In this document: positions 6,528-62,289 of the stretch, piece after piece
Layout: every line of letters begins with the position of its first letter
How positions within the stretch are numbered: the first letter of the stretch is position 1
Assembly: GCA_035583355.1 (NCBI GenBank)
Contig: DATEZQ010000003.1
Coordinates: forward strand, 1,844-65,843
Direction: 5' to 3'
DNA: 64,000 bases
DNA from: Minisyncoccota bacterium
GTDB taxonomy: Bacteria; Patescibacteriota; Minisyncoccia; Phycocordibacterales; UBA6899
The notes under the pieces: model-generated
Database searches by the model: none
What the model saw: the letters and a program-made list of their open reading frames with translations, nothing else
Told to the model about the DNA's origin: nothing
Translations under genes and position numbers: made by a program

Positions 6528-8234
6528 TTACATCTTGCTTGGCACAGCGATGCCGAGCAATGTAAGCCCGCGCTCTATCACGATGCTTGTCGCTTTGGCA
6601 ATTGCGAGATTATAGCCAATCGCAGGATTCTCAGTATCGAGAATCTTGGTATTACCGTACCAGCCATTGAATGCCTGTGCGGTCTCAAGCAGATAGGTCG
6701 CGATATGATGTGGTGCCCATTCATTTATTGAAAGCTGCACTACCTCAGGGAAACGCGTGAGCATTTTCTCAATCTGGGTGACCTCGGTAGTCGGGACTAC
6801 ACACTCTCCCCGCTTGCAGGCCACATACCCTTCAGCTGCAGCCTTCGTGAGCACAGAACGTGCGCGCACAACGGTATATTGCAGATACGGACCAGAATCA
6901 CCCTCAAACGAAAGAGAAGTGTCGGGATCAAAGTTGATATTTTTTCCTGCTGCGGCACGCAAAATTGCGAACTTTATCGCTCCTATTGCGACGCGATCAA
7001 TATCCTCATCAATAAGCTGCGGCGCACGTTCACGTACTTCTTCTGCGAGTGTATCGATGATATCCGCTGCTAGTGGTACGCCACCAAGACGCGAAGACAT
7101 CTTCTGTCCCTTGAATGTCATGCGACCATGCGTACGATGTATGGAAAGCTTTTCCCAGAGTGGATTTATCCTTTTCGCTGCCGCGAGGACAACATCGAAG
7201 TGTGAAGCCTGTTCGTGATCGGTGATAAAAAGTGAGAGATCAGGATTATATCGATCAAATTTGAGCGAGAGCAAGCCGAGGTCTTTTGCTTCGTACGTTG
7301 GTCGTCCCTCCTTGTTCACAAACACACGCGTATGGAGGCCATCCTGTTCACCCTCATAGATGATTGCTCCTTCACTCTTTGCAAACACATCTCCAATATG
7401 TGTAGCAACAAGCTGCTCCCCCACCTTTCCCGCCTCACTCTCAAAAATATACGCATCGAAATGTGAACCGAGGCGCTTCGTAGTCTCTACAAAGTAGTCA
7501 AGATTAATAGTCTTACACTCCTCGAAGATATCAAGTATGTTTCCTGGTATGCGCTCGAAGAGTGTCTTCGAGATCTCGAGCACCTCAGCTTTCACCACAT
7601 CACTCTCTTCATAAAGCTGCGTCCCCTTCGCATAGCAAGCACCTAAGTATGCAAGTTTATCTTGCTCCGTCTTGCACGCACGCAGTTTTTCAATACCATC
7701 TTGAGCTACAACATACACCGCTTTTGCAATACCAAGCGAGACGTCGGATGGAAAAGAAATAGAAGTCACCTTGCCTGCCCCCGAAAATTCTGCAAGTCGT
7801 TTGATCGACTCACCTACGGCATTGTTCATCAAGTGGCCGATGTGAAACGGTTTGAATAAGTTTGGACTTGAATGCTCAACGAGAATTTTCTTACCGTCCC
7901 ACGAATCCTCTTTTCCATAGATTTCACCTTCCTCCACAATGCGCTCCACCTCACCACGAAATACCTCATCTTCGATCGTGAAATTAATAAAACCAGGACC
8001 AGCAATTGCAATAGTCTTTACTCCTTTGATGGCACGGGAGGTAAGCGCCACGACAAGCTCCTCGGCAAGCGTACGAGGATTCTTCCCTACACTCTTTGCG
8101 ACGACCATAGCGGCATTTGTCGCAAAATCACCATGTGATGCAACAGTCGGATGCTCCAATCCAAAAGCAACCTCAGGCAGGCCAATAGCAATAAGCGTAG
8201 CGCTAATTTCGCGCCTCAGGAATTCGCTGAACAT
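6528..8234 (-). CDS. argS: Arginyl-tRNA synthetase
   Basis: HPTVASHGDFATNAAM, AGPGFINF, HIGH-type motif SSPNLFKPFHIGHLMN, C-terminal ...LGIAVPSKM typical of ArgRS. Confidence 0.9.
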   Translation of the reverse strand: MFSEFLRREISATLIAIGLPEVAFGLEHPTVASHGDFATNAAMVVAKSVGKNPRTLAEELVVALTSRAIKGVKTIAIAGPGFINFTIEDEVFRGEVERIVEEGEIYGKEDSWDGKKILVEHSSPNLFKPFHIGHLMNNAVGESIKRLAEFSGAGKVTSISFPSDVSLGIAKAVYVVAQDGIEKLRACKTEQDKLAYLGACYAKGTQLYEESDVVKAEVLEISKTLFERIPGNILDIFEECKTINLDYFVETTKRLGSHFDAYIFESEAGKVGEQLVATHIGDVFAKSEGAIIYEGEQDGLHTRVFVNKEGRPTYEAKDLGLLSLKFDRYNPDLSLFITDHEQASHFDVVLAAAKRINPLWEKLSIHRTHGRMTFKGQKMSSRLGGVPLAADIIDTLAEEVRERAPQLIDEDIDRVAIGAIKFAILRAAAGKNINFDPDTSLSFEGDSGPYLQYTVVRARSVLTKAAAEGYVACKRGECVVPTTEVTQIEKMLTRFPEVVQLSINEWAPHHIATYLLETAQAFNGWYGNTKILDTENPAIGYNLAIAKATSIVIERGLTLLGIAVPSKM

Positions 8235-9058: not shown

Positions 9059-9604
9059 CTATGCATTGAGCAAGCGCTCGAGCTGCGCGTATAATTCCTC
9101 CTTGGAGCCACTATTGTCGATGATTACCGCAGACCTTGCCTTGAGTCCATCAATGAGCAGCTCCGACTCAAGCTTGTGATCATTCACGAATTGTTCCATG
9201 GTCTTTTCTACATCATCTGACTTTTCGCCACGAAGTTTCATACGTGCAAAACGTGTCTCCATTGGTGCATCGATATAGATGAGGCGAAACCCAGGCTGTC
9301 GCTCAAGAAAGGTCACATCATCAGGACGACGGACGCCATCAACGATGATGAGTGGGGCCGTAGATTTTTCTACCTGCGTCGCAAGGGCGCGCGCAAGTGT
9401 ATCTTCCCCAAAGCCCTCACGGAGTACGCGCGAAAGACGTGAAAGATGTTCACGGTCATTAGGAAGTCCAAGAATTTCTACAATAGAAAAGAGTGAGCTT
9501 GAGAAGCGGAACAGTGTCGCATTGTGGCGCTCCTTGAAATATTCCGCGATGGTACCTTTTCCTGCGGCAATAGGACCAGTGATACCGATGATTTGTTTTG
9601 CCAT
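9059..9604 (-). CDS. P-loop nucleotide kinase (adenylate kinase / dephospho-CoA kinase-like fold), exact substrate unknown
   Basis: Walker A IGITGPIAAGKGT, DGVRRPDDVTFLE resembling the adenylate-kinase DGFPR motif, about 180 aa. Confidence 0.5.
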   Translation of the reverse strand: MAKQIIGITGPIAAGKGTIAEYFKERHNATLFRFSSSLFSIVEILGLPNDREHLSRLSRVLREGFGEDTLARALATQVEKSTAPLIIVDGVRRPDDVTFLERQPGFRLIYIDAPMETRFARMKLRGEKSDDVEKTMEQFVNDHKLESELLIDGLKARSAVIIDNSGSKEELYAQLERLLNA

Positions 9605-9661
9605 ATAGAAGAGTATAGCATATGGGAGCTCAAGCCTAAATAAACGGTTATTCTACATTTT

Positions 9662-9725
9662 GCCCGTTGAGCGCGCTGGCACGAGTCACAAAGTATTCTG
9701 CTCCGCACTGCTCGCAGAATACCAA
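9662..9725. repeat. tRNA-less fragment of the Family-1 tRNA-associated element (tattctgc...gcagaata hairpin module)
   Basis: gagcgcgctggcacgagtcacaaagtattctgctccgcactgctcgcagaatacc matches ...tcgcacacagtattctgcgagcagcgcggagcagaatactg at 62215-62260 and the hairpin at 32590-32625. Confidence 0.5.
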
Positions 9726-9886
9726 GTGCTCGTCGCCACACCTCGCTGGTCCTCAATATAAAAACACTCTTCGGAAAGAGTGTTTTTATATTTGCGGGCC
9801 GAGCTCCGGTTTACAGCAAGGGCGGATGCATACGCATCCGCCACTTGTGACATTTTGATATGTTGTTGAGTTTGAGCCGCGATGGA

Positions 9887-10312
9887 TTACATCTCGCACT
9901 TTACACCCATAGACCTTGCTGTACCAGCAACAATCTTCATTGCTGCCTCGAGGTTAGCTGCATTAAGATCAGGCATCTTCTTCTTTGCGATCTCCTCAAC
10001 CTGTGACTTCGTGAGGGTACCTGCATTCTGTGAGCCTGGCTTGTTTGAAGCCTTCTCCTTGCCGAGTGCCTTAAGGATAAGACGTGACATTGGAGAAACC
10101 TTGGTGATGAAATCGTAGGTGCGATCATCGTAAACGGTGATCACTACAGGAACGATATCGCCTACCATGTCCTTTGTTGCATCGTTGAACTTCTTGACGA
10201 AGTCACCGATGTTTACACCTGCCTGACCAAGTGCTGGTCCAACTGGTGGTGCTGGTGTTGCCTTACCTCCTGGGATCTGCAACTTCACCAACTTTACTAC
10301 TTTCTTTGCCAT
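9887..10312 (-). CDS. rplK: 50S ribosomal protein L11
   Basis: [34 protein letters not shown] signature. Confidence 0.95.
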
Positions 10313-10529
10313 AATATATAAACTTAAGTTTATTGCCCAGCGAAGCGAGAGAAGAAAATGGCGTTACTTCGCATATTTTCTTCCGAGCGAGCGCAGACAA
10401 CAAGTAATTACTTATTCTTGAGCCATAGAAGCTTGGGATGTAATCAGTGTTGCAACACTGCCTCCCTAATACTCTTGAATACTGTGCATACTACAGCATT
10501 TTCCGGAAAAATCAACCCTGCCTTGGATT

Positions 10530-19810: not shown

Positions 19811-21328
19811 ATGAAAGAACTTGAACGAGCTAAATTCAAGATCGCACTGCTCTTTATTTGTAGAAACTATATTCGGTCGTTCTTTGACTTTTGTCCAAGA
19901 CGCTATAGTATGACAGCAGATTGTTCTCAGAAAGGAACTCCTATGAGCCTCACTGTTTCTCTCGTGCAGTACCCCTCGAACCCTGCAACGCAGATGGCCA
20001 AACATGCTGCCGGCGTATGCAAGAATCCGCACATCCCCCAAATGGGCGCCCCCGGCGTCGATGTGCGCAAGGGACTTTTCCAGGTCTCCCACCACACGAC
20101 CCTCGCGCATACGAACCTCACGTTCGCCATCGATGGCCTCTCCGTCAACGGCTTTACCTTCGGTGCACACCTCGCGAACATCTACTACAACAGCGATCAG
20201 CGTAGCGGAAGGTTCTGCAACGATATGTTCGGGAACCCCGATATCCTTGCGCTCGCTGAGCACATGCAGACGTACTGGAGCTTGGACACGAAACAACTCG
20301 AAGCGGCCCTCAACTTCATCAAGAAGGGTCTTCACCTCTATGCGTCACACCTCGACGAAAGCACACAGCTCATGAAGCTGTGGGCAAAAGAGGAACGTCC
20401 GTACATAAAGACCGACATGCTCGAAAAGAGCGGGGCGCGCAACTTCGCACAGGAACAACTGCGCATGCTTGTCCCGACGATATTCCCAAGCGGGACCGAT
20501 ATCACACTCAGCCTCACGGCCATCTTTTCGCTGTGGCACACCGCGCACTCTCCGGAGATGCGTGCGCTCACTGATAAGATGCGTGACATCGTACTCGAAC
20601 TCTGGCCCGATATCGACTATATGTTCGACGAGAAATCACGTCGTGCATATGATTTCGTTCCGAAGTTCGAAGGAGCTCCGCACCTCACGAGCGACCCCGT
20701 CGCTCGGTTCATTGGGCACACGGGCGACTTCGGAAAGATCATCGTCCCTGACGAGGAAGACATGTCCCCTGTGGACCTGCTCCCTTATCGTCCCAAGTAC
20801 ATGGACAACAATGGTATCGAAGTCCATTCGGAAATCGAATACTCTGTTGCAACCATGGGGCAAGACCAGAGGCATCGCTCGATCCGCCGCACGGAACCTC
20901 GTTTTACGGGTGGCTTCTATATGCCCCCCGTCATCGAGGCGTGCGTCCCCAAGGACATCGTCCTTGCGTACATGGAAGAATGGTACGCCCTGCGTACACT
21001 TCTCCCCGAGAGTCTCGTGCTCGCACTTGCTCCGTATGGCGCAGTGGTGCAGTACCGCAAGTTCGCCCCGATCAATGCGTTCGCGCATGAGCAAGCCAAG
21101 CGTGCCTGCAAGCTCGCGCAAGGAGAGATTCGCAAAGGAGCACTCCTCCTTCGCGAATCCATTCTGGCTTCAGGTGTGCCCAATGCAGCAATCGCAGCAG
21201 AGCTCATCGGCTCACCCTGCTGCCGCAACGGCGGCACCTGCACCGAAGGGCTTTACTACTGTGGTATCAGTCTTGCCGCGATTCGTAGCGGAGACCTTTC
21301 AGCCTGCTTCGGTCCGTTCAAAGTGTAA
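19811..21328 (+). CDS. ThyX-like (flavin-dependent thymidylate synthase-like) domain protein, divergent and about twice normal ThyX length; function uncertain
   Basis: HHTTLAHTNLTFAIDGLSVNGFTFGAHLANIYYNSDQRSGRF aligns to the ThyX core HETPFEH..FTF....RHR..S..SxRY but with the first RHR replaced by LAN; a second RHR-containing stretch QDQRHRSIRRTE lies downstream. The real start may be an internal Met (MTADC or MSLTVSL). Confidence 0.4.
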   Translation: MKELERAKFKIALLFICRNYIRSFFDFCPRRYSMTADCSQKGTPMSLTVSLVQYPSNPATQMAKHAAGVCKNPHIPQMGAPGVDVRKGLFQVSHHTTLAHTNLTFAIDGLSVNGFTFGAHLANIYYNSDQRSGRFCNDMFGNPDILALAEHMQTYWSLDTKQLEAALNFIKKGLHLYASHLDESTQLMKLWAKEERPYIKTDMLEKSGARNFAQEQLRMLVPTIFPSGTDITLSLTAIFSLWHTAHSPEMRALTDKMRDIVLELWPDIDYMFDEKSRRAYDFVPKFEGAPHLTSDPVARFIGHTGDFGKIIVPDEEDMSPVDLLPYRPKYMDNNGIEVHSEIEYSVATMGQDQRHRSIRRTEPRFTGGFYMPPVIEACVPKDIVLAYMEEWYALRTLLPESLVLALAPYGAVVQYRKFAPINAFAHEQAKRACKLAQGEIRKGALLLRESILASGVPNAAIAAELIGSPCCRNGGTCTEGLYYCGISLAAIRSGDLSACFGPFKV

Positions 21329-42237: not shown

Positions 42238-44310
42238 TTAGACATACTCTGGGTAAACCTCAGCGTAATTTGGCAAATCGAGTATCTTTATCGCGGAGGA
42301 GGGTATGTTTTTACCCACCTGAACGTCAACTCCTCCCCCAGAACCCTTTAACATAGATATGGCACTGCTAAGATTGAATGCTTCAGGTGCCTCACCAAGC
42401 ATTTTTGCATAATCTTCAAATGTTCCTGTTTCCTTATATTGCTCAATGAAACTTCTTTCAATGACTGCAACATTGAGAGTGCTATTATTTCCTGCGAACT
42501 TTTCCCAGTATTTCTCAAAAAAATTGAGAATCTGCATTTTCTCACCTTCGCTAATGTTTGGATGCCGCCTCCCCTCCTTGATATCTGCATCTGATGCAGA
42601 CATCATATCATTACAAAGATTTTCAACGTTCTCACGTGCCACAGCATAATCTCGCAAATAATATGCCTTCTTTCTATTTCCTTCATTTGGGACATGGAAA
42701 CCACCGGAAACAAATTGACTAAACCATTCAGGGGAACCGGCGGCATACTGCAATACATCACGTGGAGTAGAAGCAACAGAAGTTTTACTTTCTGAATTTA
42801 TCCCAGCCCAACCAAGCAACATATTGTGCCCCGCCTTGCGACCGATAGTAGCAATCTTATTGAGGTCTTCCCAGTCCCATGCGCGCTTATTTATTGCGAT
42901 ACCGTCCTCCGCAATACTTTCCTTAAATGCACCATTAAATGCATGGAAATAATACCCCTCATTCACATAATGATCTCTAAAAAAATTAAAAACTTTCGAC
43001 TTTCCTTCCAATGAACCCACGTCGTTGATGTTTAATTTCTCGGCAATCTTTTTTATGAGAATTTCATTTACCCGTGCATCTTCCATTGCACTAGATAACC
43101 CTTCACCTTTTAATCCAAGTGATTTCACGTCTTCAATGAATCCTTGGGCTCCTGCAGGGTCCTTAAATAAGGTCATATATTCGAGCGTGTAGCCAACCAC
43201 TCTTCCCCTCACCGTTGGACCAAATTCACTGAGACTTGAGGTAAACTCATTCGATTTAAGGAACTTCGAGATTTCTGGCCATTCCACCGACTTCTGCTTC
43301 TCCTGCGTCACTGAAGCATCAGGAACATTCCTTTCTTCACTGTTTTTCAGGTGATTACTTTCGCTATGCTGCCCACTGGCCGTGTCGACTCCTTCCGCAC
43401 TTTCACGTACTCTATCTCCACCATCTTTTGGAGTAGCCCCATCACTCTTACTGCCTTCATTTTCTTGCACTGATTCCACTTGAGGAATATGAACAACCGT
43501 TCGTTCCATCTCATCAATCGGAGCGACGAAAGATGACTCTACTGAGGTTCTCAAGTCTGGATTCGAAGAGTAAAATTCTTCACTAGGAATATCTTTAAGA
43601 AGAGTCTCCCCAGTTATAGGGTCAACTTTTGTAACAACCACATACCCTTCTGGTGCGTTCTCTTTAATGCTCCAGTCTGACTCAATATCTCCATTTGTCC
43701 TTATGACTTTGATAGACGAAGAATTACCCTCGAGTGGACCCGAGGAAGTCTCTTGCTTAATCAAATTCTCCACCACCCCACGAAGGCCTCCTGCGCTTGT
43801 AACATAATCAATTTTTGTAGGATCTTCTCGAACCATTGTTATTATTCCCCTCAGTTCTTCCGAGGAATACGATTTTTGAGAACCTTGGATTCCACCCACT
43901 TCATCCAACTCCCTATACAGATCCTGAAAGTTTTTTGCAGAAGAAAGTTTACTTGAGAGTTGGTTTCTAAATTTCGCATACATGCGCTCTACAGAATCGG
44001 CAATGCTCTTTTTCGCATCCGCAACCAAACCCTCGGCAGTCTTATCTATTTCCTGCAATCGAGCACTTGTACCGAGCTCTGAGTTTATCGCACCTACTTC
44101 GTCAGGCTGAAGTCCACTTGTCTCGATGATATGCGTCATCGAAGCAGTGCTAACGGAATGAAAATCTGCTTCCTTCTGAGTGAGAATATGTAATGCGTGC
44201 TCGCCTATTTCCTCAGGCGAACTCTCGCTTTCTATTTTTTTATCAATAGATTCTATTCGCTGATGATGTGATTCGTGCTGCTCGGCATGGGCTTCGTTAG
44301 ACATAATCAA
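42238..44310 (-). CDS. Large hypothetical protein (690 aa) in an AT-rich tract
   Basis: Long ORF with no signal peptide and an acidic, Ser-rich N-terminal half; the C-terminal ~350 aa are globular with no motif I recognise. Local GC is visibly lower than neighbouring housekeeping genes. Confidence 0.5.
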   Translation of the reverse strand: MIMSNEAHAEQHESHHQRIESIDKKIESESSPEEIGEHALHILTQKEADFHSVSTASMTHIIETSGLQPDEVGAINSELGTSARLQEIDKTAEGLVADAKKSIADSVERMYAKFRNQLSSKLSSAKNFQDLYRELDEVGGIQGSQKSYSSEELRGIITMVREDPTKIDYVTSAGGLRGVVENLIKQETSSGPLEGNSSSIKVIRTNGDIESDWSIKENAPEGYVVVTKVDPITGETLLKDIPSEEFYSSNPDLRTSVESSFVAPIDEMERTVVHIPQVESVQENEGSKSDGATPKDGGDRVRESAEGVDTASGQHSESNHLKNSEERNVPDASVTQEKQKSVEWPEISKFLKSNEFTSSLSEFGPTVRGRVVGYTLEYMTLFKDPAGAQGFIEDVKSLGLKGEGLSSAMEDARVNEILIKKIAEKLNINDVGSLEGKSKVFNFFRDHYVNEGYYFHAFNGAFKESIAEDGIAINKRAWDWEDLNKIATIGRKAGHNMLLGWAGINSESKTSVASTPRDVLQYAAGSPEWFSQFVSGGFHVPNEGNRKKAYYLRDYAVARENVENLCNDMMSASDADIKEGRRHPNISEGEKMQILNFFEKYWEKFAGNNSTLNVAVIERSFIEQYKETGTFEDYAKMLGEAPEAFNLSSAISMLKGSGGGVDVQVGKNIPSSAIKILDLPNYAEVYPEYV

Positions 44311-44412
44311 ATTATACGGGCACTTATGCGCATTGCAACTGGTTCAAATACAAACAATTGTACTCGCGGAGTTTGGGTTTAAAAGAAAAGAGCATTTGTG
44401 TGCTCCTTCCTT

Positions 44413-44753
44413 AGATTGTCTCTCCGCTAGGTAATCGAAAGAACTTTTCTCGCGCACCCCAGAGGAATATAGGGCCCTTGCTAGGATATCTCACGTCGCC
44501 TGGCTCGCGCACCCTACAGGGTCCCGCACGGCCAGGCTCGTCTATTTCATTACATGAACGGTACACCTTTTGGATCTTTTGTTTCAATGACTCACAAAAG
44601 TTCTCAAAAGGTCTTGCGCTCTCGCTCCCATATGAATGGGACCCATGAGCGAGAGCTCACCCACGGTTCTCGACGCTCGAAGACTCACTGCTCTCCTCCG
44701 CAGGAGAGGTGCCCCTCTCCTGACACCTCTCCGTTCGATTCTTAGCAGAGGGA
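44413..44753 (-). repeat. tRNA-associated structured element, Family 2, downstream of tRNA-Arg(TCT) (copy E4)
   Basis: Near-perfect inverted copy of the tRNA 3' end (ccgttcgattcttagcagaggga, 44731-44753); core motifs ggagagcag, cgtcgagaaccgtgggt and gtgcgcgag shared with the Ser and Arg(GCG) copies; terminal direct copy ctccgctaggtaatcgaaag (44413-44432). Confidence 0.6.
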
Positions 44754-44754
44754 A

Positions 44755-44787
44755 AGAAAAAGCGCCAAGGCGCTTTTTCTTTAATGG
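44755..44787. terminator. Terminator hairpin for tRNA-Arg(TCT)
   Basis: aaaaagcgcc-aag-gcgcttttt. Confidence 0.6.
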
Positions 44788-44859
44788 TCCCTCTGCTAAG
44801 AATCGAACTTAGATCTAGAACTTAGAAGGTTCTTGTTCTATCCATTGAACTACAGAGAG
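44788..44859 (-). tRNA. tRNA-Arg (anticodon TCT)
   Basis: Acceptor CTCTCTG/CAGAGGG (C1:G72), D-arm GTTC-AATGGATA-GAAC, anticodon stem AGAAC/GTTCT, loop CTTCTAA, T-arm CTAAG-TTCGATT-CTTAG, discriminator A. Confidence 0.8.
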
Positions 44860-44929
44860 TTTATATTGTTCGCCCAGCATAACCCAATTTGCTTTTTTTC
44901 GCAAAATGGGTTAGATTGTCATAACAAAT

Positions 44930-45002
44930 GCGCCTTTAGCTCAGTTGGTAGAGCAATTCGTTTACACCGAAAAGGTCGGGGGTTCAAGTCCCTCAAGGCG
45001 CA
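44930..45002 (+). tRNA. tRNA-Val (anticodon TAC)
   Basis: Acceptor GCGCCTT/AAGGCGC, D-arm GCTC-AGTTGGTA-GAGC, anticodon stem ATTCG/CGAAA (A27:A43 mismatch), loop TTTACAC, T-arm GGGGG-TTCAAGT-CCCTC, discriminator A; divergent from tRNA-Arg(TCT). Confidence 0.85.
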
Positions 45003-45003
45003 C

Positions 45004-45046
45004 AAAAAGACCACCCCAAAGCAAACGCTTTGGGGTGGTTTCTTTT
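45004..45046 (+). terminator. Terminator hairpin for tRNA-Val
   Basis: aaaaagaccaccccaaagc-aaac-gctttggggtggtttcttttt. Confidence 0.65.
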
Positions 45047-45270
45047 TGCCCGCCTTGAGGGACTTGAAAGGCGGAGGCTGCGAAGCCAGCCGCTAAGGCT
45101 TCCCAGCCGAAGCGGCTGTAGCCGAGCCGTGGCGACGACCACTTAGTCTTACGGCGTCTCAAAGAGCGCCCGTAAGGCTTTGTGAGTCGTGCCAAGTCCC
45201 AGACTCCGATTCAGTTCGCTCTTGCGCTCAATCAAACAAAAACCCAGAGGGTTTTGTTTGCTTGTGTATT
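45047..45270 (+). repeat. tRNA-associated structured element, Family 1, downstream of tRNA-Val (copy E5) plus one unit of the terminator-like extension module
   Basis: Inverted copy tgcccgccttgagggacttgaa (45047-45068); core aggcggaggctgcgaagccagccgctaaggcttcccagccgaagcggctgtagccgagcc; ttgtgagtcgtgccaagtccc (the GTGAC motif plus terminal direct copy, 45182-45202); then gcgctcaatcaaacaaaaacccagagggttttgtttgc. Confidence 0.6.
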
Positions 45271-45376
45271 TAATATATCCTATTCCGCACGCGCAGCGTT
45301 CCATGAGTCAAAAACCCAAAGGGTTTTTCGACTCCCACTGCATCGCAATTGCATCTAACAAAAAATAACCGTCAGG

Positions 45377-45766
45377 TTATTTTTTCGTTGTCGTCGCAGT
45401 CGTTGTCGCCAAAGGCGTCGTAGTCGCAACTTGAATTGTTGTCGGAGTCTTAATATTCCCACTTATTGGCACCACTTCTGGTGCAGTTGCAAGCACTCTC
45501 TCATAATGCTCACTGCGCTGCGCAACATCTTCCTCCACCCTCGCTAACTCTTCTTCGGTAATAGGAATTGACACTGGTTTTACCTTATTAATCACTGCAT
45601 TCTCGGTGATGCCCCAACTATAGATATACCACCCTCCACCCATAAGCATTGCGAAAATGATGATTGCGGTCACCATCATGATCTTCCATATTGCCTCGAC
45701 ACCAACATGCTCACGTGTTGCCAAGTGCATCCTGCGGAGCACGGAGCTAAGTATTTTTTTATCCAT
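45377..45766 (-). CDS. Hypothetical membrane-anchored protein, last gene of the pilMNO cluster
   Basis: TM segment IMMVTAIIIFAMLMGGGWYIY, Thr-rich C-terminus; co-oriented, closely spaced with pilO. Confidence 0.45.
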   Translation of the reverse strand: MDKKILSSVLRRMHLATREHVGVEAIWKIMMVTAIIIFAMLMGGGWYIYSWGITENAVINKVKPVSIPITEEELARVEEDVAQRSEHYERVLATAPEVVPISGNIKTPTTIQVATTTPLATTTATTTKK

Positions 45767-49511: not shown

Positions 49512-51017
49512 ATGAATGAACAGGAAAAAATAGGTATTTTCATCCGAAGTATTCGCGAAGCCCGAGGGATGACACAGGCTGATTTCGCAAAGGCACTGAA
49601 GACTAGCCAAAGTGCTGTCGCACGTATGGAAAAAGGCGGACAGAATTTTACCACAAGCGCGCTTGAGAATATCAGCAATATTCTTGGACGAAAGATTATT
49701 GAAGTGACCGAATCACTCGACTTCCGCATCGAGGGCGGACACAAGCTCCATGGAAGCGTTGCAACGAATGCATCGAAAAACGGAGCGATGGGACTACTCT
49801 CTGCAGCGCTTCTGAATCGTGCACCAACGATACTCCACGGTATCCCGCGCATAGAAGAAGCGAATCGCTACATCGAATTCCTCACAAGCTTAGGCATTAA
49901 GATTGAGTGGATCGGACCAAACAGTATTCGTTTCACTCCTCCAAAGAAACTTGCACTTGAAAAAATGGACAAGGAGGCGGCAAGCCGCATCCGTTCCTCG
50001 ATTATGCTCATCGGCTCGCTTATACATTTAGAGCCAAGCTTCGCCCTCCCCCACGCTGGTGGATGCAAAATGGGCAATCGCACCATCGCCGCACATCGCC
50101 ACGGACTCGAAGAACTCGGAGCAAAGATAGTCACCAAGGATACCCATTACGCCATCACCGCAAAGAAGCTCCACCCTGCGGACATCGTGCTTTACGAGGC
50201 AAGTGATACCGCTGCAGAAAATCTCCTTATTGCCGCAGCACGTATTCCAGGCAAGACCACTATCTCATTTGCAACAAGCAACTACATGGTCCAAGAAGTT
50301 TGCTTCTTTCTCGAGAAGCTCGGGGTAAAGATCGAAGGTATCGGGACCAGCACCCTCACGGTGCATGGAGTGAAAGAAATTAATACTCCAATCGAATACC
50401 ACAACAGCGAAGACCCTATTGAGTCGATGATGTTCCTCACCGCGGCTATCGTCACGAATTCGAAACTCACCGTCACGCGTTGCCCTATCGACTTTCTTGC
50501 GCTTGAAATGCAAAAGCTCAAAGCGATGGGACTCAAATACAGCACTTCAAAAGTCTATCTCGCACACAACGGACACACGAAACTTGTTGATATCACCGTG
50601 CATCCAAGCAAACTCGTAACTGCGGGAGACAAAATTCATGCACAGCCCTACCCTGGTATCAACACTGATAACCTCCCCTTCTTCGTTCCCATTGCAACAC
50701 AGGCGCTTGGTACGACACTTATCCATGATTGGATGTGGGAGAACCGTGCGATCTACTTCACCGAGCTCAACCGCCTCGGCGCGAACATCACTCTCGCTGA
50801 CCCTCATCGTGCATTTGTGACAGGTCCGACCAAGCTCAAAGCAGCACAGATTGTCTGCCCTCCCGCATTGCGCCCTGCGATGATTATTCTCATCGCAATG
50901 CTCGCCGCAGAGGGTACTTCAATCCTCCGCAATGTTTACTCCATCAATCGTGGATACGAGGAGATTGCAAAGCGACTCAATACTATCGGGGCAAAAATTG
51001 AGGTCATCCATAATTAA
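49512..51017 (+). CDS. murA: UDP-N-acetylglucosamine 1-carboxyvinyltransferase with N-terminal XRE-family HTH domain fusion
   Basis: N-terminal ~70 aa IGIFIRSIREARGMTQADFAKALKTSQSAVARMEKG (Cro/C1-type HTH), then canonical MurA with active-site Cys in HAGGCKMGNRTI and a full EPSP-synthase-fold double domain; 501 aa vs about 420 aa typical. Confidence 0.9.
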   Translation: MNEQEKIGIFIRSIREARGMTQADFAKALKTSQSAVARMEKGGQNFTTSALENISNILGRKIIEVTESLDFRIEGGHKLHGSVATNASKNGAMGLLSAALLNRAPTILHGIPRIEEANRYIEFLTSLGIKIEWIGPNSIRFTPPKKLALEKMDKEAASRIRSSIMLIGSLIHLEPSFALPHAGGCKMGNRTIAAHRHGLEELGAKIVTKDTHYAITAKKLHPADIVLYEASDTAAENLLIAAARIPGKTTISFATSNYMVQEVCFFLEKLGVKIEGIGTSTLTVHGVKEINTPIEYHNSEDPIESMMFLTAAIVTNSKLTVTRCPIDFLALEMQKLKAMGLKYSTSKVYLAHNGHTKLVDITVHPSKLVTAGDKIHAQPYPGINTDNLPFFVPIATQALGTTLIHDWMWENRAIYFTELNRLGANITLADPHRAFVTGPTKLKAAQIVCPPALRPAMIILIAMLAAEGTSILRNVYSINRGYEEIAKRLNTIGAKIEVIHN

Positions 51018-52396: not shown

Positions 52397-52484
52397 GGAG
52401 ATGTGGCTGAGCGGTTTAAGGCACCTGTCTTGAAAACAGACGCTCCTACGGGGGCCGTGAGTTCGAATCTCACCATCTCCGCCA
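52397..52484 (+). tRNA. tRNA-Ser (anticodon TGA), type II, CCA encoded
   Basis: GGAGATG acceptor, GCT/AGC 3 bp D-stem, anticodon loop CTTGAAA flanked by CCTGT/ACAGA stem (one mismatch), long variable arm, T-arm GTGAG-TTCGAAT-CTCAC, 3' CATCTCCGCCA. Confidence 0.85.
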
Positions 52485-52520
52485 AAACAAAAAGCGAACA
52501 CGAAAGTGTTCGTCTTTTTG
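52485..52520 (+). terminator. Terminator hairpin for tRNA-Ser
   Basis: aaagcgaacac-gaaa-gtgttcgcttttt. Confidence 0.65.
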
Positions 52521-52523
52521 TTA

Positions 52524-52711
52524 TTTGGCGGAGATGGTGAGATTCGAACGGATAGGGGTCGGGAAAGGAGGCCCTTTCCCGTCTAGGAGAGCAGGACTTC
52601 CTCTTCCCTGAAGAGGAAGTCCGTCGAGAACCGTGGGTTCTCGAAACCGAAGGCCGCGCGAGGCTCCTCCGGAGTGCGCGAGCCGTAGGTTGTTCAATTC
52701 TCCCATTTCCG
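52524..52711 (+). repeat. tRNA-associated structured element, Family 2, downstream of tRNA-Ser (copy E6)
   Basis: Exact inverted copy of the tRNA-Ser 3' end tggcggagatggtgagattcgaac (52524-52547); core ggtcgggaaaggaggccctttcccgtctaggagagcagg, perfect hairpin ggacttcctcttc-cctg-aagaggaagtcc, cgagaaccgtgggttctcg, gccgcgcgaggctcctccggagtgcgcgag; degenerate direct copy gttgttcaattctcccatttccgc (52688-52711). Confidence 0.65.
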
Positions 52712-56720: not shown

Positions 56721-56792
56721 GTCCTCGTCGTTCAATGGATAGGACAAGAGTTTGCGGAACTCTAAATGTAGGTTCGATTCCTACCGAGGGCA
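56721..56792 (+). tRNA. tRNA-Arg (anticodon read as GCG)
   Basis: Acceptor GTCCTCG/CGAGGGC, D-arm GTTC-AATGGATA-GGAC, anticodon stem AGAGT/ACTCT, loop TTGCGGA, T-arm GTAGG-TTCGATT-CCTAC, discriminator A; anticodon identity should be confirmed with tRNAscan-SE. Confidence 0.7.
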
Positions 56793-56834
56793 CAAAATAG
56801 CAAAACCAGCGCGAAAGCGCTGGTTTTGCTATTT
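56793..56834 (+). terminator. Terminator hairpin for tRNA-Arg(GCG)
   Basis: agcaaaaccagcgc-gaaa-gcgctggttttgct. Confidence 0.65.
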
Positions 56835-57046
56835 GCCCTCGGCAGGAATCGAACAGGAAGGGGTCGGGAAACGGGAGTTTCCCGTCTAGGAGAGCAGGTC
56901 TTCCTTTTCCTAAAGGAAGACCGTCGAGAACCGTGGGTTCTCGAAGAACTTTGCCGCGCGAGGCTCCTCCGGAGTGCGCGAGCAAAGTTCGCGAGATATC
57001 CTACTCAATTTCCCTATTCCCTATACCCTATTCCCTACCGGAAAAG
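56835..57046 (+). repeat. tRNA-associated structured element, Family 2, downstream of tRNA-Arg(GCG) (copy E7)
   Basis: Inverted copy tgccctcggcaggaatcgaac (56835-56856, 1 mismatch to the tRNA 3' end); core nearly identical to the Ser copy (gggtcgggaaacgggagtttcccgtctaggagagcagg, ggtcttccttttcc-taa-aggaagacc, cgagaaccgtgggttctcg, gccgcgcgaggctcctccggagtgcgcgag); ccctattccctataccctattccctacc repeats and the direct copy attccctaccgg (57029-57046). Confidence 0.65.
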
Positions 57047-62009: not shown

Positions 62010-62082
62010 CCCCCTATAGCTCAGTCGGTAGAGCAGCAACCTTTTAAGTTGACGGTCGTTGGTTCGATTCCAACTGGGGGGA
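62010..62082 (+). tRNA. tRNA-Lys (anticodon TTT)
   Basis: Acceptor CCCCCTA/TGGGGGG (C1:G72), D-arm GCTC-AGTCGGTA-GAGC, anticodon stem GCAAC/GTTGA (one mismatch), loop CTTTTAA, T-arm GTTGG-TTCGATT-CCAAC, discriminator A. Confidence 0.8.
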
Positions 62083-62088
62083 CAATGA

Positions 62089-62128
62089 CATGCCCAAGAC
62101 GCGAAAGCATCTTGGGCATTTGTCATTG
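62089..62128 (+). terminator. Terminator-like long hairpin after tRNA-Lys
   Basis: caatgacatgcccaaga-cgcgaaagca-tcttgggcatttgtcattg. Confidence 0.55.
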
Positions 62129-62289
62129 CCTGCCCCAGTTGGAATCAAAGGGCGGAGGCCGCGAAGCCGGCCGCTGAGGCTCCCAGCCGAAGCGGCCGTG
62201 GCCGAGCCCTGGCCCTACTCGCACACAGTATTCTGCGAGCAGCGCGGAGCAGAATACTGATGTGACGAAGGGGCGATTCCAACTGGGTA
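62129..62289 (+). repeat. tRNA-associated structured element, Family 1, downstream of tRNA-Lys (copy E8)
   Basis: Inverted copy ctgccccagttggaatc (62129-62145); core ggcggaggccgcgaagccggccgctgaggctcccagccgaagcggccgtggccgagcc; hairpin cagtattctgc-gagcagcgcggag-cagaatactg; tgtgacg motif then the direct copy gcgattccaactgggtag (62272-62289). Confidence 0.65.

Follow-up and report, generated by a model that had tools for sequence, protein, structure and literature searches.

Non-coding, hairpin-rich units at tRNA genes of Patescibacteria: candidate insertion cassettes aimed at the T-loop-to-3'-end segment

Units downstream of the tRNA genes in the window

What stands behind the tRNA genes of this Patescibacteria contig, and is it mobile DNA? 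The window, that is, the whole stretch of 64,000 nt analysed, contains eight tRNA genes, a count already given by a sequence-only reading of this DNA and on which ARAGORN and Rfam agree, gene by gene. That reading held that every one of them is followed by a structured element bounded by an inverted and a direct partial copy of the tRNA's own 3' end. The observation is real but was overstated. Small, non-coding, hairpin-rich modules do lie behind the tRNA genes and share the layout tRNA(D1)-T1-I-core-D2 (Table 1), in which D1 is the 3' segment of the tRNA itself, T1 a terminator, I the inverted copy and D2 the distal direct copy. The units are gene-less, with no ORF inside them, and measure ~190-400 nt.

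As reported, a terminator separates tRNA and inverted copy at all eight loci. We searched for I and D with nt 54-73 of each window tRNA, scoring matches out of 20. The best inverted match lies 34-50 nt past the discriminator except at His (113 nt), where a 60-nt hairpin splits the copy. Scores are 20 for ArgTCT and Ser, 18 for Val and ArgGCG, 16 for LeuGAG, 15 for Lys, 13 for His and 12 for LeuCAG, and at each of the eight loci 0/500 shuffles reached the observed value, in line with the claim that chance does not account for the matches. The same queries score 6-13 against the regions downstream of other tRNAs; the copies are therefore locus-specific. When only nt 61-73, beyond the conserved T-loop, are considered, significance holds at six of the eight loci; it is lost at His because the copy is split, and at LeuCAG because of three mismatches.

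The direct copy fares less uniformly. D2 is strong at LeuCAG (18/18), LeuGAG (16/16) and Lys (14/14) and degenerate yet above chance at ArgTCT, Ser and His (p = 0.002-0.006), but in the shuffle test it does not exceed chance at Val (8 nt, p = 0.24) or ArgGCG (p = 0.28). Thus, of the two copies announced for every tRNA, the inverted one is present at 8/8 loci and the direct one above chance at 6/8, the repeat being clear at 3-4 loci and degenerate at 2-3. The inverted copies had been correctly located at 44731-44753 (ArgTCT) and 45047-45068 (Val); we place them at 44734-44753 and 45051-45068, and base 44733, next after the ArgTCT copy, also complements G53. The ArgTCT direct copy, formerly put at 44413-44432, really lies at 44419-44439, with 3 mismatches and 1 indel, and of the Val direct copy (45191-45202) only CAAGTCCC at 45193-45200 is left, which is not above chance.

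Table 1. Positions of the tRNA genes and unit parts in the window
Feature	Position	Strand	Details
tRNA-Arg(TCT)	44788..44859	-	ARAGORN; Rfam RF00005, 64.5 bits; nt 56-73 = D1
encoded CCA of tRNA-Arg(TCT)	44785-44787	-	
ArgTCT T1	44754..44787	-	hairpin + T-run; A-tract on 5' side (bidirectional type); from sequence
ArgTCT I	44734..44753	-	tRNA nt 54-73, 20/20; 0/500 shuffles
ArgTCT core	44440..44733	-	family B, 294 nt
ArgTCT D2	44419..44439	-	degenerate copy of nt 54-73, TTCGATTACCTAGCGGAGAGA; 3 mismatches, 1 indel; p = 0.006
tRNA-Val(TAC)	44930..45002	+	ARAGORN, Rfam; nt 56-73 = D1; CCA not encoded
Val T1 palindrome	45003..45050	+	terminator
Val I	45051..45068	+	tRNA-Val nt 54-71, 18/18
Val core A	45069..45192	+	helices P2-P5
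Val D2 remnant	45193..45200	+	CAAGTCCC only; p = 0.24
His unit	32414..32816	-	downstream of tRNA-His 32817-32888
His T1	32772-32816	-	
His split I	32764-32771; 32704-32763; 32691-32703	-	acceptor part; inserted hairpin; T-arm part
His core	32427-32690	-	core A + second, weaker core-like module
His D2	32414-32426	-	
LeuGAG unit	35474..35675	-	downstream of tRNA-Leu(GAG) 35676-35757; R1 101.5 bits
LeuGAG T1	35628-35675	-	
LeuGAG I	35610-35627	-	17/18
LeuGAG core A	35490-35609	-	
LeuGAG D2	35474-35489	-	16/16
LeuCAG unit	35932..36259	+	downstream of tRNA-Leu(CAG) 35850-35931; R1 34.8 bits
LeuCAG T1	35932-35979	+	
LeuCAG I	35980-35997	+	15/18
LeuCAG core	35998-36205	+	
LeuCAG D2	36206-36223	+	18/18
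LeuCAG second, different terminator	~36226-36259	+	after D2
Ser unit	52482..52711	+	downstream of tRNA-Ser(TGA) 52397-52481
Ser T1	52482-52528	+	
Ser I	52529-52548	+	20/20
Ser core B	52549-52692	+	
Ser D2	52693-52711	+	degenerate
ArgGCG unit	56793..57040	+	downstream of tRNA-Arg(GCG) 56721-56792
ArgGCG T1	56793-56833	+	
ArgGCG I	56834-56853	+	19/20
ArgGCG core B	56854-57029	+	
ArgGCG D2 remnant	57030-57040	+	
Lys unit	62083..62287	+	downstream of tRNA-Lys(TTT) 62010-62082; R1 68.8 bits
Lys T1	62083-62132	+	
Lys I	62133-62149	+	16/17
Lys core A	62150-62273	+	
Lys D2	62274-62287	+	14/14

The cores fall into two families, A (His, LeuGAG, Val, Lys and, weakly, LeuCAG) and B (ArgTCT, Ser and ArgGCG), and no full-form core motif was found elsewhere in the window. 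Covariance model R1 matches the Val unit at 45057-45204 (79.7 bits, E = 6.5e-22) and the His unit twice, at 32562-32702 (69.8 bits) and 32416-32538 (32.2 bits). Within family B, the Ser and ArgGCG cores are 97% identical across 123 nt, and the ArgTCT core has GGAGAGCAG...CGTCGAGAACCGTGGGT in common with both. Each I nevertheless fits its own tRNA, which bears out the earlier view that cores are shared and terminal copies are not. The further argument, that shared cores exclude the spread of a master copy, is weaker than it was made out to be, since conversion between the cores of a single genome is a serious alternative and could mimic recent spread.

Units at tRNA and tmRNA genes of other Patescibacteria

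Scanning metagenomes with a core motif of 20 specified bases returned 103 stretches. A genome scan found the same layout in at least three Patescibacteria (CPR) genomes among the matches listed; its pattern (GGAGGCNGCGAAGCC...GCCGAG) is too GC-rich, so that Streptomyces-type noise occurs among these matches and only L070, L086 and L096 are useful (L074 is the same contig as L169). The motif lies downstream of 74 tRNAs, typically starting 62-67 nt past the tRNA end. Both I and D are present at 55 distinct loci, whose tRNAs cover most amino-acid specificities, and one tmRNA gene also bears a unit. I terminates at T54 in 52 of the 55 loci; D begins at C56 in 38 and reaches nt 73 or further in 44, and identity between D1 and D2 is lost 1-3 nt beyond the end of D. 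These exact 54/56 boundaries hold with palindromic as well as non-palindromic T loops. Two patterns run against IMG/VR viral contigs gave no true match (17 loose matches, all of high GC content, 56-74%, and without element context). The loci compared include no close relative of the window, and attempts to extend the source genome through two window proteins led to no record for one and only to a 4.4-kb contig for the other.

Occupancy is patchy, and the genome-wide system suggested by the sequence-only reading is not supported. I is present at only 7 of 60 unselected tRNAs on other Patescibacteria contigs, and units are missing at most neighbouring tRNAs. The search for empty sites that the sequence-only reading had proposed was successful: several sites are empty in syntenic relatives of the window His/Leu/Val/Arg/Ser cluster, and at the orthologous Arg-TCT site of such relatives the core family differs. 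The clearest case is provided by two orthologous tRNA-Ser(GCT) loci, L175 and L194, which are ~95% identical. Between T55 and C56, L194 has exactly one unit more, of 191 nt (D-T1'-I'-core C); it belongs to a different core family (core C) and is closer to the tRNA than the unit common to both loci. The three D copies of L194 are all perfect. The difference could equally be a deletion through D x D recombination. Tandem arrays occur at L086, L137, L144, L166 and L129, with T1 repeated in them. Together with L175/L194, these arrays show T1 to be part of the unit, with the inserted piece placed between D1 and the T1 that was already there. Gain or loss of units is precise at the D repeat, and units accumulate in arrays. 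The distal-most D of L194 is followed by CCA and D2 of LeuCAG by a second, different terminator; both fit displaced original tRNA ends. Insertions may have displaced an encoded CCA, a hint that comes from one locus, L194.

A selected fold in the core and the origin of the copies

Core A is a five-helix fold. Across 115 distinct copies, compensatory changes are found in 28 of 31 pairs and 94.7% of cells are paired against 72% in shuffles, although the R1-based alignment was fitted to the model, so that pair counts lean toward structure. The covariation score is 0.564, as compared with 0.17 in shuffled and at most 0.085 in slid controls. On the tRNA-sense strand, core helices contain 63 G.T against 12 A.C, and this strand folds more stably at 48 of 49 loci. 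Junction nucleotides are invariant and the core ends in ...GTGAC. The core is a selected single-strand fold. The I:D helix, by contrast, has no wobble asymmetry (39 G.T, 32 A.C and 78 other mismatches) and thus no sign of RNA-level selection, which weakens the proposals that I takes part in two alternative RNA helices or acts as an antisense or decoy RNA for tRNA 3' ends.

T1 is element-borne: on different contigs, members of a single T1 family (AAAAATAAnGAGC..GCGAnTnTATTTTTGTAG) are found after tRNAs for His, Ala, Gly, Ile, Arg and Leu. Imperfections of the I:D helix vary with the T1 family and not with the tRNA. In one family an additional A faces the discriminator; in another, I lacks 1-2 nt at one or two places when the tRNA is that for Gly, Val, Asp, Asn or Lys. 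D can be perfect though I is imperfect (L162, L124/L145 and the proximal L194 unit), which fits a target-derived D combined with an element-borne I. Even with I of another type, all D copies equal the local tRNA (L124/L145, L162, L194), and D2 follows the T-stem changes that distinguish the tRNAs of L124 and L145. This favours target duplication, although att recombination between identical sites is also compatible. The window shows the opposite pattern, I being near-perfect and D2 decaying at 4-5 loci, so that window copies may be immobile, with I maybe kept for another reason.

I complements the gene flank (e.g. AACGAT/ATCGTT), and TGG is part of it only if the gene encodes CCA; in Ser, for example, TGG at 52526-52528 extends the copy over the encoded CCA. 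As I corresponds to the gene flank and not to a mature CCA end, it was copied from DNA or a precursor, not from mature tRNA; a retroelement primer-binding site or mature-tRNA template was rejected for this reason. Many I copies contain a ~25-nt hairpin at or near the acceptor/T-stem junction (window His, L096, L136, L158, L167, L174, L180, L195). In the window, D1-T1-I forms a near-perfect palindrome centred on the terminator, flanks included, with ~40-50 nt per arm, for example at Ser. A perfect I goes with a perfectly palindromic T1, as in the window, and an imperfect I with a T1 that contains internal loops.

Comparison with known systems

The sequence-only reading knew of no named class with this architecture, and this held against Rfam 15 and the full-text literature, in which our search found no description of it. 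Only the eight tRNAs pass a gathering-score scan of the whole window. E-value scans gave sub-threshold hairpin/miRNA-like matches to the palindromes at 44380-45400 and no matches at 9500-10400, and none of the Rfam families checked, including ribozymes, tmRNA, tRNA-like RNAs and ROOL/GOLLD, matches the units. A group I/II intron or T-loop intron was rejected, as boundary nucleotides do not fit, Rfam gives no match and the upstream tRNA is complete; published Patescibacteria tRNA introns lie at position 35/36 (bioRxiv 10.1101/2025.07.03.662931). Pfam was run on 32 of the ~68 window ORFs of at least 100 aa, among them 30 of at least 200 aa (the others include one of 213 aa); in these 32, recombinases, transposases, Cas1, reverse transcriptases and HUH proteins are all missing.

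T-loops of tRNA and tmRNA genes are reportedly among the sublocations in a classification of tyrosine-integrase att sites (Williams, 2002). Like elements integrated there, the units leave the tRNA intact, also use tmRNA, insert in tandem, show precise presence/absence at the repeat and are flanked by direct repeats of the target tRNA 3' end (D1/D2, nt 56-73/74, 38-44 of 55 loci). They differ in being only 190-400 nt long, without integrase or ORF, in that one core family uses nearly any tRNA type, and in adding an inverted copy, their own terminator and a conserved structured core, with D apparently target-derived. No unit contains an integrase of its own and no recombinase domain was detected in the 32 window ORFs.

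A search for distant I/D copies revealed no autonomous copy. L199 is an island of the usual kind, with a repeat of the anticodon arm. Four further loci, L122 (restriction-modification genes), L169 (truncated serine recombinase and RepO-like protein), L158 (251-aa membrane ORF) and L191, seem to have received an insertion at a later time, in each case between the tRNA and a unit that was older. The truncated serine recombinase of L169, in an unrelated island, is the sole recombinase seen nearby. The window ORFs 42238-44310 and 31040-32365, directly after units, have no Pfam domains and no tRNA-end repeat beyond them, and no link to the units was seen.

The casposon of A. boonei has a 15-bp target site duplication (TSD) and requires the adjacent 18-bp T-psi-C-loop region (PMC5137440, PMC4779613). 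The units share with Cas1-type systems the duplication of a target beside a T-psi-C-loop "leader", and when the site is used again, tandem elements with a repeat in common result; the extra unit of L194, whatever its relative age, is on the leader side, where CRISPR arrays acquire their new units. Here, however, the repeat measures ~19 nt and is a segment of the tRNA itself (nt 56-74), and the insert is a fixed structured module instead of a large transposon or captured spacer. Neither cas1 nor polB was found in the units or the scanned window ORFs, and the units lack terminal inverted repeats.

Sites of the attC and CTX-phi type are imperfect hairpins read on one strand, with conserved extrahelical bases, a variable stem and a variable or structured apex, and attC cassettes form arrays that grow at a fixed chromosomal site with the enzyme provided in trans. 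The units resemble them in family-specific bulges and a sense-strand core bias, yet their I:D stem has no strand bias, the joint is at the apical end of the 3' arm after GGTT, unlike the attC crossover in the GTT of a basal R box, the sequence of the stem is that of the neighbouring tRNA, and the apex (core) is strongly conserved in sequence. No intI, attI or dif-like site is adjacent to the units.

MITEs, REP/BIME and the tRNA-flanking palindromes of fungal mitochondria are small, non-coding, GC-rich and hairpin-dense, with fixed ends of their own. The units are likewise non-autonomous modular mosaics present in many copies after genes, but in contrast to those elements their flanking repeats are those of the local tRNA, their position is fixed to the nucleotide and their core covaries like an RNA. 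A MITE was rejected, as the ends of the mobile part (T1 start and ...GTGAC) are not inverted repeats and the I/D pair is a target copy. A 4-nt CGAA target duplication around the core was also rejected: it fits palindromic TTCGAA loops and fails for TTCAAGT and TTCAACT. Palindrome-associated elements derived from IS200/IS605 are defined by insertion 3' of a fixed tetra-/pentanucleotide without duplication, by subterminal hairpins and by TnpA/TnpB in the genome; the units insert directly after GGTT and have hairpins at both ends, and TnpA/TnpB are absent from the window ORFs scanned.

Tn7-like CRISPR transposons (CASTs) are directed next to tRNA genes by delocalized crRNAs (PMC11656645). The units similarly carry a short sequence matching the adjacent tRNA gene beside a structured scaffold, but the geometry does not fit, no Cas/Tns genes are found here and the units are two orders of magnitude smaller. 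CAST-like insertion 60-66 bp from a GGTT PAM agrees with the distances and is excluded by L175/L194 and the arrays.

An insertion cassette and the competing explanations

We give even chances to the explanation that we put first, namely that the units are non-autonomous, site-specific insertion cassettes whose target is the T-loop-to-3'-end segment of tRNA/tmRNA genes in Patescibacteria. Of the three options in the sequence-only reading, a tRNA-targeting non-autonomous mobile element is thus the favoured one, because of presence/absence at T55/C56, tandem arrays, patchy occupancy and the lack of ORFs in the units. The unit occupies the exact junction of T55 and C56 and has a copy of nt 56-74 on either side, D1 within the working tRNA and D2 distally; owing to the repeat, this position is equivalent to one just past nt 74. 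Since the unit brings its own T1, transcription of the tRNA mostly ends before the rest of the unit, in which I copies nt 54-72/73 and is followed by the conserved multi-helix core.

Under this explanation, the active form would be single-stranded and folded, with tRNA-sense polarity; it could be top-strand DNA or a read-through transcript, and I would pair in it with D across T1 or across the core. The imperfect I:D hairpin would constitute a double-stranded replica of the tRNA gene 3' end with family-specific extrahelical bases, and the core, with its invariant junction nucleotides, may be the handle for a trans-acting host or helper enzyme making the joints at 55/56 and ~74. The D pair would most simply be a target duplication, comparable to the TSD of a casposon or the repeat of a CRISPR array, and the tRNA as far as GGTT would be the "leader"; an element-borne att copy is less likely. 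As the repeat makes the inserted segment circularly ambiguous, target duplication and att-type recombination are not rigorously separable. After insertion, arm-to-arm conversion across the T1 palindrome may keep or make I complementary to the local tRNA. Near-identical cores with different I at different tRNAs imply a retargeting for which the cassette explanation does not account. We put forward only tentatively the bolder proposal of a new mobile-element class, active as a folded single strand, which a candidate Patescibacteria enzyme would insert at T55/C56 with duplication of nt 56-74. The ~110-nt core would recruit this widely conserved enzyme and the I/D hairpin would be the replica of the tRNA-gene 3' end, in a CRISPR-/casposon-like "leader-repeat" or an RNA/ssDNA-templated system that could be re-aimed at any tRNA/tmRNA because its ends are rebuilt from the target.

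The core fold also suits a host-serving structured RNA, which we hold to be unlikely. A tRNA-sense read-through of I, core and D would fold into a tRNA-like molecule, with I:D forming the acceptor and T stems, often with a third arm inserted at the junction; it would be processed by RNase P, RNase Z and the CCA-adding enzyme and act in tRNA maturation, quality control or 3'-end protection, and presence/absence would be gain and loss of an accessory RNA gene. The strong core covariation and invariant junction nucleotides agree with such an RNA, as do G.U pairs limited to the sense strand, its greater stability (48/49 loci, as in T1 terminators), the many I hairpins that would give a three-way, tRNA-like junction, the way D2 tracks the T-stem (L124 versus L145) and the wide distribution of the motif over Patescibacteria lineages. 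However, a terminator precedes every unit and no room is left for a promoter between T1 and I, I:D mismatches are random, D2 has decayed at half of the window loci while I is intact, and Rfam has no match; moreover, a selfish element is the better match for patchy occupancy, for core families that differ between orthologous sites and for identical units arranged in tandem. The D1-I-D2 triplet is, on the other hand, the classic signature of duplication-inversion-duplication, and there is a small chance that the units arose without dedicated mobility, as by-products of palindrome-driven replication errors. Template switching by fold-back at the terminator hairpin would yield a reversed copy of the tRNA 3' end (I), another switch, at the T-arm palindrome, would copy it forward again (D2), and accreting hairpin cores would be homogenised by gene conversion inside the genome. 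The terminator-centred palindrome of the window with its flanks, the perfection of I following that of T1, as expected from arm-to-arm conversion, and the 97% identity of the Ser and ArgGCG cores are all compatible with this scenario, but it leaves unexplained the core and T1 families, which are conserved with invariant junctions and covariation in distant organisms and across most types of tRNA, the 54/56 boundaries, exact with both kinds of T-loop, the family-specific bulges and the clean one-unit L175/L194 difference with its different core family.

Finally, core and D2 may be read as a guide-RNA-like module, which seems to us very improbable. The core would be a scaffold and D2 a 19-nt 3' spacer for the tRNA segment after GGTT (nt 52-55), a motif that presumably resembles a Cas12k PAM; the DNA encoding D2 is preceded by GTGAC and so would not be a target, and an RNA-guided nuclease or transposase encoded elsewhere would home to tRNA genes. 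Such a module would have the observed conserved sense-strand scaffold with a variable 19-20-nt segment at its 3' end; D begins at C56 directly after GGTT (38/55 loci), D2 stays identical to the tRNA while I drifts, and units are inserted at the far end of the segment (~nt 74). CAST homing next to tRNA genes by delocalized crRNAs offers a precedent (PMC11656645). Against this, Cas12k, TnpB, IscB and Tns are absent from the scanned window ORFs and none was seen beside units elsewhere; D1 behind GGTT stays an intact target in occupied loci, so that a nuclease would self-target; L175/L194 and the T1-repeating arrays contradict a fixed insertion 60-66 bp from GGTT; I would sequester the spacer; and D2 has decayed in half of the window units.

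Implications

Patescibacteria are a very large and poorly understood radiation with tiny genomes, so that dozens of non-coding modules at their tRNA loci need explaining. If mobile, the units target essential single-copy tRNA genes harmlessly, as they bring a terminator and leave the 3' end intact. Target-specific ends around a shared structured core fall outside integrase islands, MITEs, integron cassettes, casposons and IS200/605 derivatives as defined, and the units would thus be a variant of tRNA-targeting mobile DNA, possibly with a new mechanism. The enzyme, once found, could give a compact programmable tool for integration at tRNA sites. The core itself is a new, well-supported structured motif (115 distinct copies) that could join RNA/DNA motif libraries and improve CPR annotation. 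Arrays are a record of leader-proximal insertions, usable for strain typing, and the palindromes can mislead assembly and the annotation of tRNA 3' ends.

Layout of the units in the window

ARAGORN and Rfam identify the same set of eight tRNA genes in the window (His, Leu-GAG, Leu-CAG, Arg-TCT, Val, Ser-TGA, Arg-GCG, and Lys). Inspection of the 600 nt located 3' of each of them reveals a single layout, common to all eight and always in the tRNA's own direction. The tRNA, whose 3' end we call D1, is directly followed by a hairpin with A- and T-tracts, i.e. an intrinsic terminator of the bidirectional type (T1), then by an inverted copy of its T loop, 3' T-stem strand, and 3' acceptor strand (I), by a GC-rich, multi-hairpin core of 120-294 nt and, in most window units, by a direct copy of the same tRNA segment at the distal end of the core (D2). 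In the window, D1, T1, and I together form a near-perfect palindrome, with arms of ~40-50 nt at loci such as Ser.

Using nt 54-73 of each tRNA as a query and 500 shuffles as a reference, I obtains a score of 12-20 (maximum 20) at its own locus versus 6-13 at other loci, and at all eight loci the observed score exceeds that of every one of the 500 shuffles, which bears out the sequence-only reading that an inverted tRNA-end copy follows every tRNA of the window. I is also significant at six of the eight loci when the conserved T loop is left out of the query (nt 61-73). As for D2, it is intact or almost intact at Leu-CAG (18/18), Leu-GAG (16/16), and Lys (14/14), degenerate yet above chance at Arg-TCT, Ser, and His, and not above chance in the shuffle test at Val (8 nt) or Arg-GCG. 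A direct copy had been claimed for all eight loci: this holds for four to six of them. The positions previously assigned to the I copies were recovered, while the direct copy of Arg-TCT had been misplaced (see table). Window copies combine a near-perfect I with a D2 decaying at four to five loci, the reverse of loci elsewhere.

Six of the eight tRNA genes do not encode CCA, the discriminator being followed by CAA. In many units, a 25-60-nt hairpin is present in I at or near the acceptor/T-stem boundary, as in the His unit and at scanned loci L096, L136, L158, L167, L174, L180, L195, and L121; it often ends in CGT or TGT and makes I:D a three-way, tRNA-like junction. Two or three more shared modules lie past D2 of the Val and Leu-GAG units (TATTCCGCGCG..GCGCTCAATCAAAC, then a terminator hairpin of the AAAAACCCAAAGGGTTTTT type; the spacer, TGTATTAGATATATC, is AT-rich), and are also found behind an array in a different organism.

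Core families and core fold

Cores belong to two families: A (motif GGCGGAGGCYGCGAAGCC), behind His, Leu-GAG, Val, Lys and, weakly, Leu-CAG, and B (motif GTCGAGAACCGTGGGT), behind Arg-TCT, Ser, and Arg-GCG. Within the window, both motifs, in complete form, occur solely 3' of tRNAs and solely in that orientation. The cores of the Ser and Arg-GCG units share 97% identity across 123 nt, while their I and T1 segments differ.

The core-A consensus, derived from an alignment of 28 units, comprises a closing helix formed by I and D (P1), two short, clearly covarying helices (P2 and P3; one pair varies between A-U, G-C, C-G, and U-A, another between C-G and U-A), an invariant GCGAAGC mini-hairpin, a hypervariable hairpin (P4), and a long hairpin (P5). 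Junction nucleotides are invariant in this alignment, but as the GAAAG, CGGAGGC, and GCGAAGCC stretches were preset by the search pattern, only GCCGAG and the following GG are independently conserved. A covariance model built from the 28 units (R1) yielded 124 core-A copies, 115 of them distinct. In these copies, paired cells amount to 94.7% (72% in shuffles), both sides change at 28 of the 31 pairs, and the covariation score is 0.564, versus 0.17 in shuffled and at most 0.085 in slid controls, with the caveat for the pair counts that the alignment was fitted to the covariance model.

Core helices contain 63 G.T versus 12 A.C, and, of the two strands, the sense one gives the more stable fold at 48 of 49 loci (38 of 49 for T1 terminators). 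This asymmetry and this stability indicate that the folded strand is the tRNA-sense strand, either as RNA or as top-strand DNA; the core is a selected structure on that strand. P1 is devoid of G.T bias (39 G.T, 32 A.C, and 78 other mismatches), and the I:D complementarity seems to have arisen by copying rather than through selection on an RNA helix.

R1 also detects a weak core-A/P5-like hairpin in the window with no adjoining tRNA and no match in Rfam. Hairpin modules may also exist as free intergenic repeats.

Distribution and boundaries

The pattern of a first genome scan was too GC-rich and returned mostly actinomycete noise, along with at least three true loci among the matches listed (Patescibacteria bacterium UBA6023, "bacterium SKS1.bin43", and a Candidatus Saccharibacteria MAG). 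Matches to 103 metagenome stretches were obtained with a more specific core-A pattern; of the matches located directly behind an annotated tRNA, most start 62-67 nt past its end. Loci related to the window units come from Patescibacteria (CPR) assemblies. I and D are both present at 55 distinct loci, and unit-bearing tRNAs cover most amino-acid specificities. In addition, one tmRNA gene (tag AKTSKGIASPYMPAFALA*) is followed by the T1-I-core-A arrangement, with an I matching the tmRNA 3' end.

Boundaries are sharply defined: the complement of T54 is the last base of I in 52 of the 55 loci (in family B, I extends one base more, to G53), D starts at C56 in 38 and reaches the discriminator in 44, and identity between the sequences trailing D1 and D2 stops 1-3 nt past the discriminator. 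At two loci, L126 and L186, a core-A unit lies behind a T arm and acceptor 3' strand (..GGTCGCAGGTTCGAATCCTGCCCGGGGAGCA) in which ARAGORN finds neither tRNA nor tmRNA, and which may belong to an interrupted or unusual tRNA-like gene.

The search of Rfam 15 proposed along with the sequence-only reading matched no family, no unit copy was found in IMG/VR, and a full-text literature search retrieved no description of the architecture. The Patescibacteria tRNA introns treated in a recent preprint are located at position 35/36 (bioRxiv 10.1101/2025.07.03.662931) and are unrelated.

Which parts travel with the unit

The same T1 families recur behind different tRNAs on different contigs (e.g. AAAAATAAnGAGC-hairpin-GCGAnTnTATTTTTGTAG), so that T1 belongs to the unit. 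Imperfections of I track the T1 family and not the tRNA: one family shows an extra A opposite the discriminator, and in another, I has lost 1-2 nt at one or two places, regardless of whether it lies behind a Gly, Val, Asp, Asn, or Lys tRNA. D matches the local tRNA even where I does not, as at locus L162 and in the comparison of L124 with L145, where an older T-stem state is kept in I and D2 follows the tRNA.

Gain, loss, and occupancy

Units are subject to precise insertion or deletion at the D repeat. Loci L175 and L194 are orthologous tRNA-Ser(GCT) loci, ~95% identical in their upstream region, tRNA, and shared core-A unit, but L194 has exactly one extra 191-nt unit, which separates T55 from C56, lies closer to the tRNA than the shared one, and is made of D, a different T1, an I with an inserted hairpin, and a core of a different family. 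All three D copies of L194 are perfect, while the I of the extra unit is imperfect. A CCA stands behind the distal-most D, as expected of an original tRNA end, and suggests that a working gene can lose its encoded CCA upon unit insertion.

Tandem (D-T1-I-core) arrays exist in several contigs. In contigs syntenic with the His/Leu/Val/Arg/Ser cluster of the window, most of these tRNAs are empty, and the orthologous Arg-TCT site of a syntenic relative carries core A, versus core B in the window. I is present at only 7 of the 60 tRNAs of the same contigs that were not picked by the search pattern. The occupancy of all eight tRNAs in the window is extreme.

At four loci, gene-carrying segments are found between the tRNA and a distal tRNA-matched D'-T1-I-core-D unit; they have the appearance of islands inserted later at this tRNA, but could be cargo. 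A classical island at a tRNA-Leu(TAG), with partial tandem duplicates and a repeat of ~45 nt (from the anticodon arm to the 3' end) 4.4 kb away, shows that these organisms harbor ordinary integrase-type islands alongside the small units.

Locations of features in the window and in contigs or loci from the genome and metagenome scans (L-numbers)
Feature	Location	Strand	Remark
Base 3' of tRNA, CCA not encoded	window 32816, 35675, 35932, 45003, 56793, 62083
Encoded CCA, Arg-TCT	window 44785-44787
Encoded CCA, Ser	window 52482-52484
Direct copy, Arg-TCT	window 44419-44439
Hairpin inside His I	window 32704-32763	-
Modules past D2, Val	window 45202-45345	+
Modules past D2, Leu-GAG	window 35235-35472	-
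Same modules behind array	L086, about 6930-7060
Core-A/P5-like hairpin	window 9669-9823	-	R1 22 bits, E = 1.4e-4; intergenic, 3' of ORF 9887-10312 (-)
tmRNA gene with unit	L206 887-1259, 702-831	-
Unit behind T arm and acceptor strand	L126, upstream of 6349; L186, upstream of 179
Gene-carrying segment	L122 2093-6600		DNA methylase, Z1/ResIII protein
Gene-carrying segment	L169 6100-10760		truncated large serine recombinase, RepO-like protein
Gene-carrying segment	L158 1990-3260		251-aa membrane ORF
Gene-carrying segment	L191 750-2400		~1.6 kb
Classical island	L199 8200-8260, 12700-12920	-
Isoleucyl-tRNA synthetase	window 2344-5880	-	1178 aa
EPSP-synthase/MurA-family protein	window 49512-51017	+	N-terminal HTH_3 domain
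505-aa protein	window 19811-21328	+	just a weak ThyX (Thy1) match, first half
690-aa ORF	window 42238-44310	-	no significant Pfam match
441-aa ORF	window 31040-32365	-	only a sub-threshold Pfam match (EphA2_TM, E = 0.0086)

Possible mechanism and alternatives

A direct repeat at a T-loop site and tRNA/tmRNA targets are classical for integrative elements. What is not classical is that a gene-less unit should combine a terminator of its own with a locus-matched I and a covarying core. Given this classical site and target range and this non-classical combination of parts, we file the units as tRNA-targeting mobile DNA; that they represent a genuinely new insertion mechanism is a possibility we hold as rather doubtful. 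The units do bear a terminator, a conserved sense-strand fold, and target-matched flanks. In the simplest view, the D pair would be a duplication of target nt 56-74, beside the GGTT of the T arm. By pairing with D across T1 or the core, I would form a hairpin that reproduces the end of the tRNA gene and has defined extrahelical bases, and the core could be the handle for a trans-acting enzyme, the active strand being DNA or RNA. After insertion at a new tRNA, I could plausibly be re-templated through conversion of one arm by the other across the T1 palindrome, with the terminator stem and the conserved TCGAA as anchors. Such a duplication would resemble that of casposons, whose target-site duplication adjoins a T-psi-C-loop "leader", comparable to CRISPR repeat duplication (PMC5137440), and for which tandem copies with one common repeat are known (PMC4779613); the I:D hairpin with its extrahelical bases would be reminiscent of integron attC and folded CTX-phi attP sites.

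Recombination of the att type between identical sites is formally possible. Core covariation, as well as the hairpins at or near the acceptor/T-stem junction of many I copies, could also point to a host RNA with a tRNA-like fold, which we consider unlikely in view of the terminator preceding the unit, the random I:D mismatches, the decay of D2, and the patchy occupancy and arrays. Palindrome growth purely by template switching would leave unexplained the conservation of cores and T1 families across distant organisms and the clean single-unit polymorphism; it does account for the direct-inverted-direct triplet, but appears quite improbable. Finally, the units could be guide-RNA-like, with a scaffold and a 19-nt spacer whose target follows GGTT, an intriguing idea given CAST homing to tRNA genes (PMC11656645). 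However, the Pfam scan of 32 window ORFs reveals no effector gene, self-targeting of D1 would be implied, and the L175/L194 pair contradicts a fixed-distance version, making this explanation very hard to credit.

Genes of the window

The window carries ordinary housekeeping genes, such as those for IleRS, ArgRS, phosphoketolase, acetate kinase, Mur ligases, a PilM-family protein, NusG, and RecO. The Pfam scan, which covered 32 ORFs out of ~68 of at least 100 aa, reveals neither a recombinase nor a transposase. The 690- and 441-aa ORFs start ~50-110 nt past the ends of the Arg-TCT and His units, on the same strand, and no further tRNA-end copy is found beyond them. The isoleucyl-tRNA synthetase has a histidine-phosphatase domain (His_Phos_1) inserted at residues 518-684.
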